DNA from: Escherichia coli | GTDB lineage: Bacteria > Pseudomonadota > Gammaproteobacteria > Enterobacterales > Enterobacteriaceae | Strand: one strand, 5' to 3' | DNA: 64,000 nt | Assembly: GCF_024298765.1 (NCBI RefSeq) | Contig: NZ_CP101210.1 | Shown here: positions 42,655-48,001 of the stretch, piece after piece | Layout of the letters: every line of letters starts with the position of its first letter | Position numbering within the stretch: the stretch's first letter is position 1 | Notes under the pieces: model-generated | Databases searched by the model: none | The model's input: the letters and a program-made list of their open reading frames with translations, nothing else | What the model was told of the DNA's origin: nothing | Translations under genes and position numbers: made by a program

Positions 42655-42689
42655 ATGGGTCCCTAAACACATCATTTTAGGTATTGAAT

Positions 42690-44219
42690 ATGAGACGGGC
42701 AATCAGCTACATCAGATTTTCAAGTGAACGACAACTAAAAGGGGACTCTGTACGCAGACAATCTAAGCTGGTCACTGACTGGCTTGATAAGAACCCTGAG
42801 TTTTACTTGGATTCATCCTTGAGCTTTAAAGATTTGGGGAAAAGTGCTTTTAGTGGTAAGCACTTGAAAGGTGGCTTAGGTGACTTTTTAACCGCTATCG
42901 AGAAAGGGCTTGTTAAAGCTGGTGATACACTACTAATCGAGAGTTTAGACCGTCTCTCACGTCAGGATATTGATATTGCTTCTGAGCTATTACGTCGTAT
43001 CTTAAGGGCTGGTGTAGATATAGTCACACTGAGCGATGGTGAACATTACACACGAGAAAGTTTAAAAGACCCGTTATCCCTGATTAAAAGCATTCTGATA
43101 ATGCAGCGGGCGCATGAGGAAAGTCTGAGGAAGTCTGAGCGTGTCCAAGCTGCATGGAACCGTAAAAAAGAACTCATCTCCGAAGGTATCAAGGTATCTA
43201 GGCGTTGTCCTGCATGGTTAAGGCTGAATGATGACCGTCGAACATTCACTATCATCCCCGATAAAGTGGAAGTTGTTAAACGAGCATTTGACCTGAGATT
43301 ACAGGGTTTAAGCTTTTGGGCTATCACCAGAACTTTAAACGATGAAGGCCACTTGTCATTGAATCAATACACACCTAAACAAAAGGGATGGTCTGATACT
43401 GCTGTAAAGAAACTACTCAGAAATCGTGCTGTGATTGGATGTTTCACACCTGCTGGACGTGAAGAAGTTCAGGGTTACTACCCCGCAATAATCAGTGAGT
43501 CACTATTCTATCGAGTACAGCAACTGAACACAGGGCAATATGGTAGGGCTTCTGTATCAAGTAATCCGCTATCAGTCAACTTGTTCAGGGGTATCATCAA
43601 ATGTTCTGAGTGTGGGGCTACTATTGTTCTTGGTGGATATGCCTTAAAACGTTTTGGGATGTACAGATGCCCTAATCGTTCAGCTAACAGGTGTAGTGCA
43701 AAGGCTATCAGTCGTAAGCAAACGGATACAACTATCCTTTACATGCTCGCATTATGCGACCGTTTTGAAACTGAAAATACTGACACTATTGATAGCCTTA
43801 AATTACAGCGTGAAGATTTGCAGCGTAAAATCTCAAAAATGGCAGAACTCGCTATTGAACTCGATGACATGACAATTATCACAGAGAAATTACGTGATAT
43901 GAAGAATGCGCTATCAAAACTCAATCATGATATCGAAGAGGAAACAAAGCGGATAAAGGCCATCACAACTGGAAGCCTCAAAGATATTGACAGGACAACA
44001 AAGGAAGGGATGATAGAGACACAGCTACTTATCAAGGGCGTACTCAAAGAAATAGTTATAGATGCCGCTAAACGTCGCTGTAAAGTGACTTTTCACAACG
44101 GTAAGGTAATTGACCTACCTATAACAGAAAACCCCTCAGAGGACGTTACAGAGGCCATACAGTCGCTTTCTGAAGTCACTGAGAGGGGTTTAATAGATGT
44201 TGATGTAGTAGCGATTTAG
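42690..44219 (+). CDS. large serine recombinase (integrase)
   Basis: 509 aa from ATG 42690 (track begins 6 nt earlier at TTG): N-terminal resolvase domain with catalytic YIRFSSERQ, recombinase domain, Cys-rich zinc ribbon CSECG...CPNRSANRC, C-terminal coiled coil. Confidence 0.88.
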   Translation: MRRAISYIRFSSERQLKGDSVRRQSKLVTDWLDKNPEFYLDSSLSFKDLGKSAFSGKHLKGGLGDFLTAIEKGLVKAGDTLLIESLDRLSRQDIDIASELLRRILRAGVDIVTLSDGEHYTRESLKDPLSLIKSILIMQRAHEESLRKSERVQAAWNRKKELISEGIKVSRRCPAWLRLNDDRRTFTIIPDKVEVVKRAFDLRLQGLSFWAITRTLNDEGHLSLNQYTPKQKGWSDTAVKKLLRNRAVIGCFTPAGREEVQGYYPAIISESLFYRVQQLNTGQYGRASVSSNPLSVNLFRGIIKCSECGATIVLGGYALKRFGMYRCPNRSANRCSAKAISRKQTDTTILYMLALCDRFETENTDTIDSLKLQREDLQRKISKMAELAIELDDMTIITEKLRDMKNALSKLNHDIEEETKRIKAITTGSLKDIDRTTKEGMIETQLLIKGVLKEIVIDAAKRRCKVTFHNGKVIDLPITENPSEDVTEAIQSLSEVTERGLIDVDVVAI

Positions 44220-45380
44220 TATCTCTTATTAGGATTCACTGAGTACTTTTTAAGCTTTGAAGCTACCCGACCAGCGTTACTGTTAGCATTGGTGAGGTTG
44301 GTTTTTTCAGCTTCTTCACAAAAAAGCTTCAGAGGTCTTCTTAACCATCCGCTAAGCAGGAGAGAGGGTGGTACATGAGAAAGAACCCTCACTTCTAAAA
44401 AGATTTTTTAGCTATTTTGCTTAAAACCATATCAAAAGATACATTTTATTGATTCAGGTCAAAGACAAAAGCATTGACAAAATGGTAAAATTGTTCACAT
44501 GACCTTACTTAACAGACTTTTTAAGAGCTTTTGAGAAGCTTGTTGAACAGACACTCTTTCTGGAGTGTTGTCTTTTACTTAAGAGGTTTGTTTAGATAAC
44601 TCTCAAGGCATCTCTTAAGAATCACTGTTAAGGTGATACTCTCCCTTCGGGTTATATCGTATCTCTTCTCCCGTTAGACAGTTTTTCCTAGCAACTTCAT
44701 AGTTATCTGTCAAGTGCCTTTGAAGATTCCATCAAGACCTCTGAATCTGACCTGATATAGATGCTGTGAAGGCATATTCTCTAGGTCTGTGTAGCTTACT
44801 TAGTGGGAAGAGAGGGATATAGTGACCATAGGGGAACCCCTCCTGTTAAAAAGACTACTTAGAAGTCTGAGACTTTAGTAAAATCTGTGAATATAGCTTC
44901 TCAGACGCTCTGTAACGCATTCTAAGCGATTTTACCACCTTATTTTAAGGTGGGTGGTACATCCCTATAGGTTACCCTAAAAATGGGGTTAAAACTCGCT
45001 ACAGAGCTTTCTATGAGGCTTGGTAGAGTTGCATAAATTTTACACAACACTTATTCAGCTTCTAAATTTTTTTATAAAAAATCGTAGTAACCCCTCTACA
45101 TTCCCCTTCACCGATAATCTTCAAAAATATCTATCACAGGTCTATACCTGCTAAGTACCCGTCACTACGCCTAAGTGGTCCCCTTTGCAAAATTTTAAAA
45201 TATCTATTGACTTTTTATGTGAACTGTTATAAAGACCGCTCCATCTCTTAGGCATACCGTTATAGCATACTAAAAAGGTATAGCTAACCCCCTGTAAAAA
45301 CCATACCGATTAGCCTTGTAAAACACTTTATCGGTACATTATACTCAACTCATCAAATGAGTAAGGCAAATGAGTATATT

Positions 45381-45926
45381 ATGGCTAACATTGGTTATAT
45401 CCGAGTTTCATCAATCCAGCAGATTACAGACCGTCAACTTGAAGGGGTCGTACTGGATAAGATATTTACTGATAAAGCATCTGGGAAGAATACAGACCGT
45501 CCACAACTAAAGGCTATGCTCGATTATGTTCGTGAAGGTGATGTTATCCATGTACACGACTTGTCACGTTTAGGGCGCTCTACCGTGGATGTATTAACGC
45601 TGGTGGATAAACTTTCACAGAAAGGTATCAAGGTTCACTTTCACAAAGAAGGTCTGATAACTGGTGACGATAACCCCACGTCTAAGATGATTCTCACAAT
45701 CTTTTCAGCAGTGGCTGAAGCTGAACGTAAAATGATGCTTGAGCGTCAACGAGAAGGCTATGAAGCTGCTAAAGCTGCTGGTCGTGTAGTTGGAAGGGGT
45801 AACGGTAAAGCGGTTGACAGAGAAGGTATTAAAGCTGCTCTTGCTGCTGGTGGTTCAATCGCTAAAGTAGCCGCTCAATTCAACGTTGCCAAGTCAACTG
45901 TACAGCGTATTAAAGCTGAAGATTAA
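45381..45926 (+). CDS. small serine recombinase, resolvase/invertase family
   Basis: ~181 aa from MANIGYIRVSS (catalytic Ser), IFTDKASG, LSRLGRS, SAVAEAERK, C-terminal HTH; the track ORF starts 8 codons earlier at 45357. Confidence 0.85.
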   Translation: MANIGYIRVSSIQQITDRQLEGVVLDKIFTDKASGKNTDRPQLKAMLDYVREGDVIHVHDLSRLGRSTVDVLTLVDKLSQKGIKVHFHKEGLITGDDNPTSKMILTIFSAVAEAERKMMLERQREGYEAAKAAGRVVGRGNGKAVDREGIKAALAAGGSIAKVAAQFNVAKSTVQRIKAED

Positions 45927-45939
45927 GTCAGGAAATACA

Positions 45940-46623
45940 TTAGATTTTTCTTCCAAATAAACTTGGGAGATTCTTACGGTTTCTTGCTTGCATCATTATT
46001 TCTGGGCTAACAAGTTTTTTTAATTCGCTTCTGTACTCATCAATAGAACACTCATCCGCAACAAGTTTTGAAATCAGGTCTTCAATAGACATAACATCTT
46101 GTTGCAGGAAATCAAGTTCACGAGACAAGTGCTTTTTTTGATTCTCTAACTTTCCTATCTCAGCATTTAAGTTATCTACATCTGTCGCCAATTTCTCTGC
46201 CTGAGATTTCAAATTACTTGTATCTTCTTTTTCTCTTTCGATAAGGTTTTTTTGTTTCTCAATCTTCAACTTTGACGTCAGTCTAGCTGACTCTTCAAGA
46301 TTTTCAGCTTCTACTTTTTGTCTTGCTCGCCATGCGGTTGCCTTGATTTGAAGTAGTGTTACAAGGTTGCTGAAGTAAGGGAAAAAGGTCGCCAAAATGA
46401 ACCCTAGCCCTACGGGATAGCATAATGTTTTTAGATAGAAGTCTTCCGTCGATGTGATTTGTTGAATACGAGTAACAACCGAAGCCTCACTAAGACACAT
46501 GATAGCAATGCTTTTCCAGTTAAATCCCACCCATGACAAAATGATGTAGCCCCATAAAGGGTTAGCTACTCGTTCCTTCAACGCCTGCTTAACTGATTCC
46601 GTGATACTTTCTTCACTACTCAC
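45940..46623 (-). CDS. hypothetical membrane-anchored coiled-coil protein (227 aa)
   Basis: Two N-terminal hydrophobic helices (PLWGYIILSWVGFNW..., VGLGFILATFFPYFSNLVTLL), then ~120 aa of charged heptad-like sequence; no family recognised. Confidence 0.65.
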   Translation of the reverse strand: MSSEESITESVKQALKERVANPLWGYIILSWVGFNWKSIAIMCLSEASVVTRIQQITSTEDFYLKTLCYPVGLGFILATFFPYFSNLVTLLQIKATAWRARQKVEAENLEESARLTSKLKIEKQKNLIEREKEDTSNLKSQAEKLATDVDNLNAEIGKLENQKKHLSRELDFLQQDVMSIEDLISKLVADECSIDEYRSELKKLVSPEIMMQARNRKNLPSLFGRKI

Positions 46624-46957
46624 AATTACTGCTCCATAGAAAACTCTGGTTTGAGAAATTTTAATGCGAATCCAATCAGTTAGATAGACCTGTAAATAGC
46701 AATTTTATAGAAGTCGAGAGAGGGATGACTAACACCCTGCATAGTTTCCTGAAAAGAGACTTCGCATATTATCTATATATTTCAATAAGTTATGCTAAAA
46801 AGGAACTATACCAATACTGCATAGATTCTGCGTAAAACTGCTTGGATACTTGGAAATCCACCATTAAATTGCATAGTCATTCACCTGATAAAGCCTGTTA
46901 TTAACAGGTGATAGGATTCGGATGTTCTCATAGTGTATTTAGGGAATTAATATCAGC

Positions 46958-48001
46958 ATTACATTTTTATTTTCGGCCATCGCCTCACCGTTTTGGGGTG
47001 GACTCGCCGACCGTAAAGGCCGAAAACTCATGCTATTACGCTCTGCCCTCGGCATGGGCATCGTGATGGTGTTGATGGGACTGGCACAAAATATCTGGCA
47101 GTTTTTGATCCTGCGGGCGCTTCTTGGGTTACTTGGCGGATTTGTCCCCAACGCTAATGCTCTTATCGCCACACAAGTACCGCGTAATAAAAGCGGCTGG
47201 GCGCTGGGTACGCTCTCCACAGGCGGCGTTAGTGGTGCGTTGCTCGGCCCAATGGCTGGCGGCCTGCTCGCCGATAGCTACGGCTTACGTCCGGTATTCT
47301 TTATTACCGCCAGTGTGCTCATACTCTGCTTTTTCGTCACCCTGTTCTGCATCAGAGAAAAATTCCAGCCGGTCAGCAAAAAAGAGATGCTGCACATGCG
47401 GGAAGTGGTGACATCACTTAAAAACCCGAAACTGGTACTCAGCCTGTTTGTCACCACGTTAATCATCCAGGTGGCGACAGGCTCAATTGCCCCCATTCTG
47501 ACGCTGTATGTCCGCGAACTGGCGGGTAACGTCAGTAACGTCGCCTTTATCAGTGGCATGATCGCCTCGGTGCCAGGCGTGGCGGCTCTGCTAAGCGCAC
47601 CACGACTCGGCAAACTTGGCGATCGAATCGGACCCGAAAAGATCCTGATTACAGCGCTGATCTTTTCTGTACTGCTGTTGATCCCAATGTCTTACGTTCA
47701 GACGCCATTGCAACTTGGGATTTTACGTTTTTTGCTCGGTGCCGCCGATGGTGCACTACTCCCCGCCGTACAGACACTGTTGGTTTACAACTCGAGCAAC
47801 CAGATCGCCGGGCGTATCTTCAGCTATAACCAATCGTTTCGTGATATTGGCAACGTTACCGGACCATTGATGGGAGCAGCGATTTCAGCGAACTACGGTT
47901 TCAGAGCGGTATTTCTCGTCACCGCTGGCGTCGTGTTATTCAACGCAGTCTATTCATGGAACAGTCTACGTCGTCGTCGAATACCCCAGGTATCGAACTG
48001 A
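46958..48001 (+). pseudogene. mdtG: mdtG 3' fragment (codons ~63-408), separated from its start
   Basis: Frame resumes ...[35 protein letters not shown]... to the native stop; the track shows only the internal-Met ORF 47030-48001. Confidence 0.85.

Follow-up and report, generated by a model that had tools for sequence, protein, structure and literature searches.

In this study, we analysed a 64,000-nucleotide stretch of an Escherichia coli chromosome (assembly GCF_024298765.1, contig NZ_CP101210.1; the whole stretch is called the window below), in which an island of about 4.3 kb interrupts the gene mdtG and carries, besides a large serine recombinase (LSR), the gene of a small serine recombinase (45381–45926, plus strand). 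The small gene is intact and encodes a protein of the resolvase type, as judged by Pfam, by alignment with solved structures and by its active-site residues, and it is directly preceded by sites whose geometry matches that of the res site of Tn3. In our assessment, the gene is probably the core of a portable res/resolvase cassette for multimer resolution, which travels as cargo in an element integrated by the LSR and acts neither as the integrase nor as the recombination directionality factor (RDF) of this element. The L-numbers used below (L002, L096, etc.) are labels of the loci, contigs and relatives that were compared.

A resolvase-type recombinase and its candidate res sites

The protein has the hallmarks of a small serine recombinase, namely a catalytic domain with the nucleophilic serine and its partner residues, a C-terminal helix-turn-helix (HTH) and a length of 181 amino acids. 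The mechanical open reading frame (ORF; 45357–45926, 189 amino acids) is longer than the RefSeq gene, and the true start is almost certainly the ATG at 45381 (MANIGYIRVSS..., 181 amino acids), since RefSeq uses this codon and the homologues all begin with M-A/S-N-I/V-G-Y at this point. The Pfam family Resolvase (PF00239) was matched with E = 2.8e-37. The best matches among solved structures were Tn3 and gamma-delta resolvase (E of about 5e-31), which align over the full length (residues 4–179; residue 179 of 183 is reached in gamma-delta resolvase) at an identity of only about 40%, and Gin invertase (1.5e-23) and Sin (1e-18) scored lower. A study of Tn3 resolvase (PMC2794168) covers 15 conserved residues, and mapping onto the alignments showed that 14 of them are kept (the equivalents of Y6, R8, S10, Q14, Q19, D36, S39, R45, D59, R68, R71, E118, R119 and R125). 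The sole changed residue is D67, which is Ser here and either S or D among homologues; this residue is non-essential in Tn3 resolvase, D67 mutants of which keep substantial activity (PMC2794168). The small resolvase/invertase-type gene described in the initial annotation is therefore real, and so is the large serine recombinase alongside it, which was recognized by its Pfam domains at 42690–44219. Substitution of the catalytic serine or other key residues in homologues, which the same annotation had named as telling against its proposal, was not seen in the nine catalytic residues checked (the equivalents of Y6, R8, S10, Q14, Q19, D36, R45, R68 and R71), all of which are invariant across five relatives. 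The dN/dS ratio among four alleles of the gene was 0.06–0.31, indicating that it is under purifying selection. The PHROG family to which the protein belongs is labelled 'DNA invertase', and PADLOC gave no match for it.

A crossover site and an accessory site, with fixed spacing between them, are predicted directly upstream of the gene. Candidate site I (crossover; 45254–45281) is 28 bp in length, reads ATACCGTTATAG-CATA-CTAAAAAGGTAT and is centred 113 bp upstream of the ATG; it was also picked up by an inverted-repeat scan and has no further match in the window with three or fewer mismatches (0 expected). Candidate site II (accessory; 45303–45337) is 35 bp in length, begins 21 bp from site I, reads ATACCGATTAGC-N11-CTTTATCGGTAC and has perfect 7-nt arms (TACCGAT/ATCGGTA) in the same scan, with a distance of 52.5 bp between the centres of the two sites. 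The half-sites are inverted and follow the pattern ATACC-N4-TAG, of which four of the ten matches in the window (both strands) fall within 45144–45337, a clustering to be read with the fact that the pattern was derived from these same sites. A possible third subsite (ATACTCA...TGAGTAT, 37 bp; 45341–45377), which is a weak and tentative call, overlaps the ribosome-binding region and is conserved only in part in L011. Among the four alleles, hardly any differences are seen between site I and the start codon, whereas the preceding 100 bp are variable; within site I, the outer ATACC and the inner TAG are fixed and the four bases between them vary, and site II is nearly invariant.

The three sites of Tn3 res are 28, 34 and 25 bp in length. 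Together these dimer sites occupy 114 bp (PMC2602789), and the linker between sites I and II is 22 bp (bioRxiv 10.1101/2021.12.07.471667). The 28-bp site I, the 21-bp gap and the 35-bp site II of the window match this geometry, and they sit where the initial annotation, which had recommended a comparison with res, expected such sites to be, just upstream of the gene. The 'direct-repeat ATAGC motifs' that it had reported there are present as TATAGC at 45262 and 45279, but they are fragments of the inverted-repeat site at 45254–45281.

The strongest evidence for a putative res comes from comparison, as the layout of the upstream sites appears to be conserved beyond the four alleles. Relatives of 51–65% identity (L009/L010/L014, L012 and L016) have an inverted-repeat site of 28–32 bp centred at −113 to −119, and their half-site words differ from those of the window (e.g., GTAGTGA, TTGTAA-type). 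L012 has in addition a second site of 37 bp at −65.5, which is 53.5 bp downstream of its site I. In the more distant Pseudomonas relatives L018 and L024, the inverted-repeat sites, of which there are several, lie at different offsets and are based on GAATAC.

A sigma-70-like promoter sequence (TTGTAA-18 nt-TATACT; 45316–45345, plus strand) lies inside site II and is likely the autoregulated promoter of the gene; its placement there gives the layout expected of an autoregulated resolvase gene. By eye, like −35/−10 pairs are found at the same position in L009 (TTTACA/AATAAT) and L012 (TTGACA/CATAAT). The initial annotation had assigned the gene a promoter of its own further upstream (45207–45233, plus strand). 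This sequence is present as described, with TTGACT at 45207–45212 and TATAAA at 45228–45233, a TG before the −10 element (TTGACT-15-TGtTATAAA) and a 15-nt spacer, outside the usual 16–18 nt, but it belongs to the backbone of the island and points into a slot for variable cargo. The interval 45100–45234 is still matched in genomes without the cassette, and TTGACT also occurs in sibling elements in which the slot is empty or holds a different recombinase (type C, see below). Because TTGACT is found in siblings with no recombinase or with another one, the promoter-like sequence is not the small recombinase's 'own' promoter, and it could drive whatever the slot contains. Promoter-like matches in the AT-rich stretch as a whole showed no excess over chance (10 versus 6.2 ± 2.4 in shuffles).

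Taking these features together, we propose that a cassette of about 45240–45930, consisting of the res subsites, a promoter inside res and the gene, moves as a unit. Dimers of the enzyme would bind the inverted ATACC-N4-TAG half-sites at site I for crossover and at site II as an accessory, with a third dimer possibly placed over the ribosome-binding region, and occupation of sites II and III would repress the embedded promoter, giving autoregulation. When two copies of res stand as direct repeats on one supercoiled circle, the enzyme would delete the intervening DNA and thereby restore monomers. Such a substrate could be a dimer or multimer formed by the circle of the element after its excision and presumed replication. 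An integrated single copy would be idle, because it has no partner res site. We infer binding, autoregulation, resolution activity and substrate from the sequence. Resolution was one of the roles considered in the initial annotation, and the geometry of the sites, the higher score to resolvases than to invertases and the location of the nearest relatives on small plasmids all point to it.

Portability of the cassette and the island that carries it

The nearest relatives outside the island family (55–65% amino acid identity) are located on plasmids of 2–6 kb, one of which is ColE1-type with RNAI, and further relatives are carried by an IncF plasmid and by islands whose integrases are of other kinds, tyrosine integrases among them. 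Another of these plasmids is L006 (NZ_CP116175.1), of 1985 bp, whose sole annotated gene is the recombinase. The same holds for similar circular plasmids of about 2 kb from E. coli and Salmonella, in which the recombinase is 59% identical to that of the window; the remaining 1.4 kb or so of these plasmids contains iteron-like AAGTAACC repeats and no RNAI match. Within the island family, the cassette of the window type (type A), which is carried by 28 of the 5426 E. coli genomes, is 95% identical in L002 and L005 when the flanks are only 70–80% identical, and the pair formed by the recombinase gene and the neighbouring gene for a 227-amino acid protein is 95.6% conserved in L005. The history of the type A cassette differs from that of its flanks. 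In L009 (4660–6001), L010 (4236–6001) and L014, which belong to different islands of E. coli, cassettes of 65% amino acid identity are situated downstream of ORF-free stretches of 1.3–2 kb that are unrelated in sequence to that of the window; L009 and L010 have in common only a cassette leader of about 410 bp. A long ORF-free neighbour is not general among the related recombinases.

In the island family, the cassette occupies a variable slot. We compared 41 elements with a complete interval from the core of a conserved ORF-free block to a conserved block at the right end (both described below). The type A recombinase was found in 4 of the 41, a type C recombinase, 31–33% identical to A, in 3 (plus strand), and a type B recombinase, 34–36% identical to A and with several half-site pairs upstream of its gene as seen by eye, in 13 (minus strand); in 15 elements there was no large ORF. 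Small recombinases are thereby present in 20 of the 41 elements (L094–L135), as three non-orthologous types that are mutually 31–40% identical. This recruitment of three non-orthologous enzymes to one place suggests that their activity is useful to the element. At the same time, the small recombinase is optional, replaceable and independent of orientation, and a dedicated partnership with the LSR is therefore excluded. In 6 of the 41 elements, an HNH+AP2 homing endonuclease gene (L004 8568–9092; also L092, L108, L113, L120 and L121) replaces the equivalent of 44813–45034 of the window, including a folding repeat called segment X, and lies within the ORF-free region, outside the slot.

The island of the window (42656–46959) lies in a chromosomal region with the E. 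coli gene order yceI-trhO-lpxL-mdtG-msyB-mdoH. The N-terminal fragment of mdtG stops at about 42655 and its frame picks up again at about 46961; RefSeq records mdtG as two pseudo-halves flanking the insert. The same island in mdtG was found in eight E. coli genome records (5426 genomes searched), which are collinear save for insertions of insertion sequences, and in one metagenome contig (L119). The island integrase is the LSR (42690–44219, plus strand, RefSeq start), which has the Pfam domains Resolvase, Recombinase and Zn_ribbon_recom and matches a PHROG integrase family (E = 1e-80). Its gene starts only about 34 bp from the attL junction; this leaves no space for a promoter, so the integrated gene could be read only from mdtG. 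In the excised circle, as read from the circular contig L096, only some 100 bp separate the right-end block from the LSR gene downstream of it, and the block may be the source of a promoter for this gene.

Next to the LSR gene lies the 3′ remnant (44220–44315, minus strand) of a Dit-like tail gene ('phage baseplate protein'), which matches the end of the baseplate gene in other genomes, including L004 145–472. The last 100 bp or so of this gene are fused to the ORF-free region, and the window island is therefore an internal deletion derivative of an LSR-integrated element of about 10–11 kb, being about 7 kb shorter than the full element. The space between the LSR and small recombinase genes amounts to 1.1 kb without an ORF. 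Beyond the small recombinase, a gene on the minus strand (45940–46623) encodes the 227-amino acid hypothetical protein, which is hydrophobic in its N-terminal half and coiled-coil in its C-terminal half; it gave only weak coiled-coil matches in Pfam and PADLOC (LmuB/JetC models) and matched PHROG families of unknown function. This gene is variable companion cargo: L002 lacks it, and in L011 a different gene takes its place. The right-end block (46679–46958) abuts attR and is conserved at 73–85% in most siblings and at up to about 90% in L005. Tn3-family transposons have a linked tnpA transposase gene and terminal inverted repeats of about 38 bp. Neither was found in the island, which contains, besides the two recombinase genes, only that of the hypothetical protein; thus, the small recombinase is not part of a transposon.

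Full-length relatives of the island (L002–L005, L011 and about 40 metagenome contigs) are about 10–11 kb in size and are integrated at mdtG, tonB-yciI, yecE, yegS and lafU. Their order is attL, the LSR gene (plus strand), the Dit-like gene, a tape-measure gene and six small genes without a family match (all on the minus strand), about 2 kb of ORF-free DNA, the variable slot, the right-end block and attR. Their GC content is about 38%, far under the usual E. coli level, they encode no capsid proteins, and NCBIfam gave no above-cut-off match for any protein of the element. Virulent myophages of the Felix O1-like group (Felixounavirus) have, after their tape-measure gene, a gene whose product is 72% identical to the Dit-like protein; between the tape-measure proteins themselves, the identity is 27–31%. 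A circular form of the element was found in L096, a metagenome contig of 11,233 bp that closes on itself with a 55-bp overlap. The junction of L096 is an attP with the core AAAGCAC. Comparison with the integrated sibling L098 (1–231 and 10764–11053) showed that the sequence to the left of the core is the arm of attR and that to the right is the arm of attL, which demonstrates that the family excises as a circle. When 44220–45960 (the ORF-free block plus the recombinase) was used as the query, 466 of the 5426 E. coli genomes (about 9%) were matched, mostly over the ORF-free block. The searchable literature on satellites and Felix O1-like phages gave no description of this element. The island family looks like an undescribed satellite or parasite of Felix O1-like phages.

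The conserved ORF-free block (44394–45139) contains no ORF of at least 40 amino acids except one of 44; it is unannotated in other E. coli genomes, where it is 80–93% identical, and corresponds to the conserved ORF-free DNA of about 2 kb present in each full element (full version, L003 6952–9567). A core of about 130 bp (about 44380–44500) has a column conservation of 93–98%, compared with 60–75% in the flanks, and contains a promoter-like sequence (AAGACA-18-TGgTAAAAT, 44462–44491), followed by a terminator-like hairpin (44550–44569); repeated purine-rich motifs were seen in the region by eye. Candidate functions of the block are those of an origin, of a packaging site or of a promoter that responds to a helper. 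Within it, segment X (44863–45025, plus strand) is a repeat of about 150 nt that folds strongly (fold z-scores of −3.5 on the plus and −5.5 on the minus strand). A second copy of it, about 70% identical and inverted, is found in the leftward operon of full-length elements (L002 3593–3756, L004 5488–5651 and L011 6675–6793), where it abuts an HNH endonuclease gene. Given that one copy is on the plus strand in the ORF-free region and the other on the minus strand in the leftward operon, both sub-families of segment X are sense to the presumed local transcription.

Several identities for the ORF-free region were considered and set aside. A search of the window in Rfam with permissive E-values returned nothing credible (one NRON match, E = 0.07), the full-length region of L003 had no match there, and neither tRNA nor tmRNA was found. 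A large structured RNA was not favoured by RNAalifold, which for 34–40 diverse copies gave −4 to −6 kcal/mol with few compensatory pairs on either strand. A ColE1-like origin in common with the small plasmids was dismissed, as there is no DNA similarity to L006/L007 beyond the recombinase gene and no RNAI in the window. For a phage cos or pac site, no blastn match of the region was obtained in 50,697 phage records, and none in the skuden tail region.

Alternative roles of the small recombinase

Several observations weigh against a res/resolvase cassette at work in the island. There is only one copy of res in the window, and no sign there of the enzyme acting. The C-terminal HTH_7 match (22.1 bits) is slightly under the Pfam cut-off of 23.8. 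The third subsite is weak, having poorly matched half-sites and a length of 37 bp against 25 bp in Tn3. The island, having lost about 7 kb, may be unable to excise or replicate, in which case the cassette would be without a substrate. About half of the siblings do without a small recombinase, and any benefit must therefore be dispensable.

The most probable of the alternatives is that the cassette is a selfish or left-over passenger that hitch-hikes between replicons without gain to the island, here as a relic in a truncated one. It agrees with the presence of a homing endonuclease in the slot region of 6 of the 41 elements, with a cassette history unlike that of the flanks, with the window island being a deletion derivative and with the finding of this type in no more than 28 of 5426 genomes. 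Against it stand the purifying selection that acts on the gene and the near-invariance of the sites, and the recurrence of three unrelated recombinases in the slot of half the elements suggests selection for the function at this place. We regard the passenger scenario as possible though clearly the less probable of the two; it overlaps with the multimer-resolution cassette, the biochemistry being identical in both.

A more specific role can be put forward tentatively, with a similarly low degree of belief: the recombinases may be a working module of undescribed satellites of Felix O1-like phages, in which the resolvase cuts packaged concatemers into unit circles. As the element encodes no capsid proteins, its genome of about 11 kb would enter the helper head of about 87 kb as a head-full, in the form of a concatemer about eight units long. 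After injection and circularization, res and resolvase would split the multimer, and the resulting unit circles could be integrated singly by the LSR. Such a role would explain why three unrelated recombinases are found in a slot that in the circle lies just upstream of attP and why they are useful yet dispensable. PICMIs are reported to package their DNA as a concatemer.

The variable slots of satellites often hold defence genes, and the small recombinase and the 227-amino acid membrane/coiled-coil protein might accordingly form a two-gene accessory system, for example for phage defence or exclusion. The conservation of the pair in L005 (95.6%) and the weak LmuB/JetC coiled-coil matches are consistent with such a system. 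We nevertheless hold it to be improbable, as the PADLOC matches of the neighbour are weak coiled-coil ones and the recombinase has none, and the recombinase occurs without that neighbour in L002 and with a different one in L011.

Equally improbable is a Hin/Gin/Pin-type invertase that flips an ORF-free segment or a promoter, which would amount to the phase variation suggested in the initial annotation. The small serine recombinases do include invertases, the PHROG label is 'DNA invertase', and the gene adjoins an unexplained ORF-free region with promoter-like sites. Invertases act at isolated sites of about 26 bp plus a Fis-bound enhancer in or close to the gene, whereas an architecture with accessory sites, as found here, is typical of resolvases, and the Gin score is below that of Tn3 resolvase. 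Two inverted crossover sites flanking a segment were not found: no second site I is present in the window with up to three mismatches allowed, and the mapping of inverted repeats around a candidate invertible segment, which the initial annotation had proposed, revealed no strong pair bounding any segment across the island. In all 28 complete E. coli genomes that contain the cassette, the alignment is unbroken over at least 45140–45920, so that none is interrupted at site I, and the eight records of the island are collinear as well. With a single site I and collinearity in 28 of 28 genomes, inversion is not supported. When the 41 sibling intervals, placed in one direction by their conserved ends, were compared on the minus strand, one 49-bp piece alone occurred in both orientations, which might be taken in favour of an invertase, but this piece goes with the type B cassette and not with the gene of the window; the difference may reflect a rearrangement, past or still in progress, that has nothing to do with the latter. 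In the 'empty' elements L099 and L115, inverted repeats of 17–19 bp (AGTTGATTCGGTTAGTT) surround about 510 bp (interval coordinates 745–793 and 1275–1293), and the 49-bp left copy is seen inverted beside the type B gene in other elements (L101 1381–1429).

Least probable of all is the directionality factor or helper of the neighbouring LSR that the initial annotation had also considered, for although the LSR lies in the same island and, in the circle, the slot precedes attP and the LSR gene by just a few hundred bp, no co-occurrence with the cognate integrase was found across related elements (a small recombinase is lacking in 21 of the 41 siblings and, in the remaining 20, belongs to one of three types that are 31–40% identical and lie in either orientation), the cassette family is also present on plasmids and on islands with tyrosine integrases, and, to our knowledge, no LSR directionality factor is itself a serine recombinase.

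Comparison with known systems

The closest known counterpart is the Tn3/gamma-delta resolvase, which the small recombinase resembles in size, in domain order (catalytic domain, then HTH), in full-length alignment (E of about 5e-31) and in 14 of the 15 residues. The putative res likewise resembles that of Tn3 in its 28-bp inverted-repeat site, linker of about 21–22 bp, second site of about 34–35 bp and promoter within the site region. The window cassette differs from Tn3 in lacking a transposase and terminal repeats, in its half-site ATACC-N4-TAG, in the Ser at D67 and in an identity of about 40%; its third site is uncertain and, if real, longer. Plasmid multimer-resolution resolvases, such as ParA of RK2/RP4, Sin and beta, are similar in being a stand-alone res and resolvase with no transposition function, and the nearest relatives of the small recombinase are on ColE1-type plasmids and plasmids of about 2 kb; unlike those systems, the window cassette is located on an integrated phage-related island. 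Both sites in the window are inverted repeats, whereas site II of Sin is a direct repeat (bioRxiv 10.1101/2021.12.07.471667). The invertases Hin, Gin, Cin and Pin share the protein superfamily, the size and the PHROG grouping as 'DNA invertase', but the window has neither an inverted pair of crossover sites nor an invertible segment, possesses accessory sites and gives a lower score to Gin.

Considered by itself, the gene is of modest consequence: it would extend an enzyme family that is already well understood by a res/resolvase cassette of plasmid type whose half-site, ATACC-N4-TAG, is new, and a suggested phase-variable switch is removed from this E. coli locus. Its main value is as a pointer to a family of LSR islands whose ORF-free block is present in about 9% of complete E. 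coli genomes. In context only, these islands are comparable with PLE, the satellite of the virulent phage ICP1 in Vibrio cholerae, and with PICMI, which are also small LSR islands that are related to virulent myophages and have no capsid genes. The link to a helper is here deduced from shared tail genes alone, the family of the window has in addition a tape-measure gene, a Dit-like gene and about 2 kb of ORF-free DNA, and we know of no small resolvase in PLE or PICMI. If the islands are satellites, their recurrent small recombinases would be a clue to how concatemeric DNA is converted into single integrating units, and the family would represent an E. coli counterpart of the PLE/ICP1 system of Vibrio.

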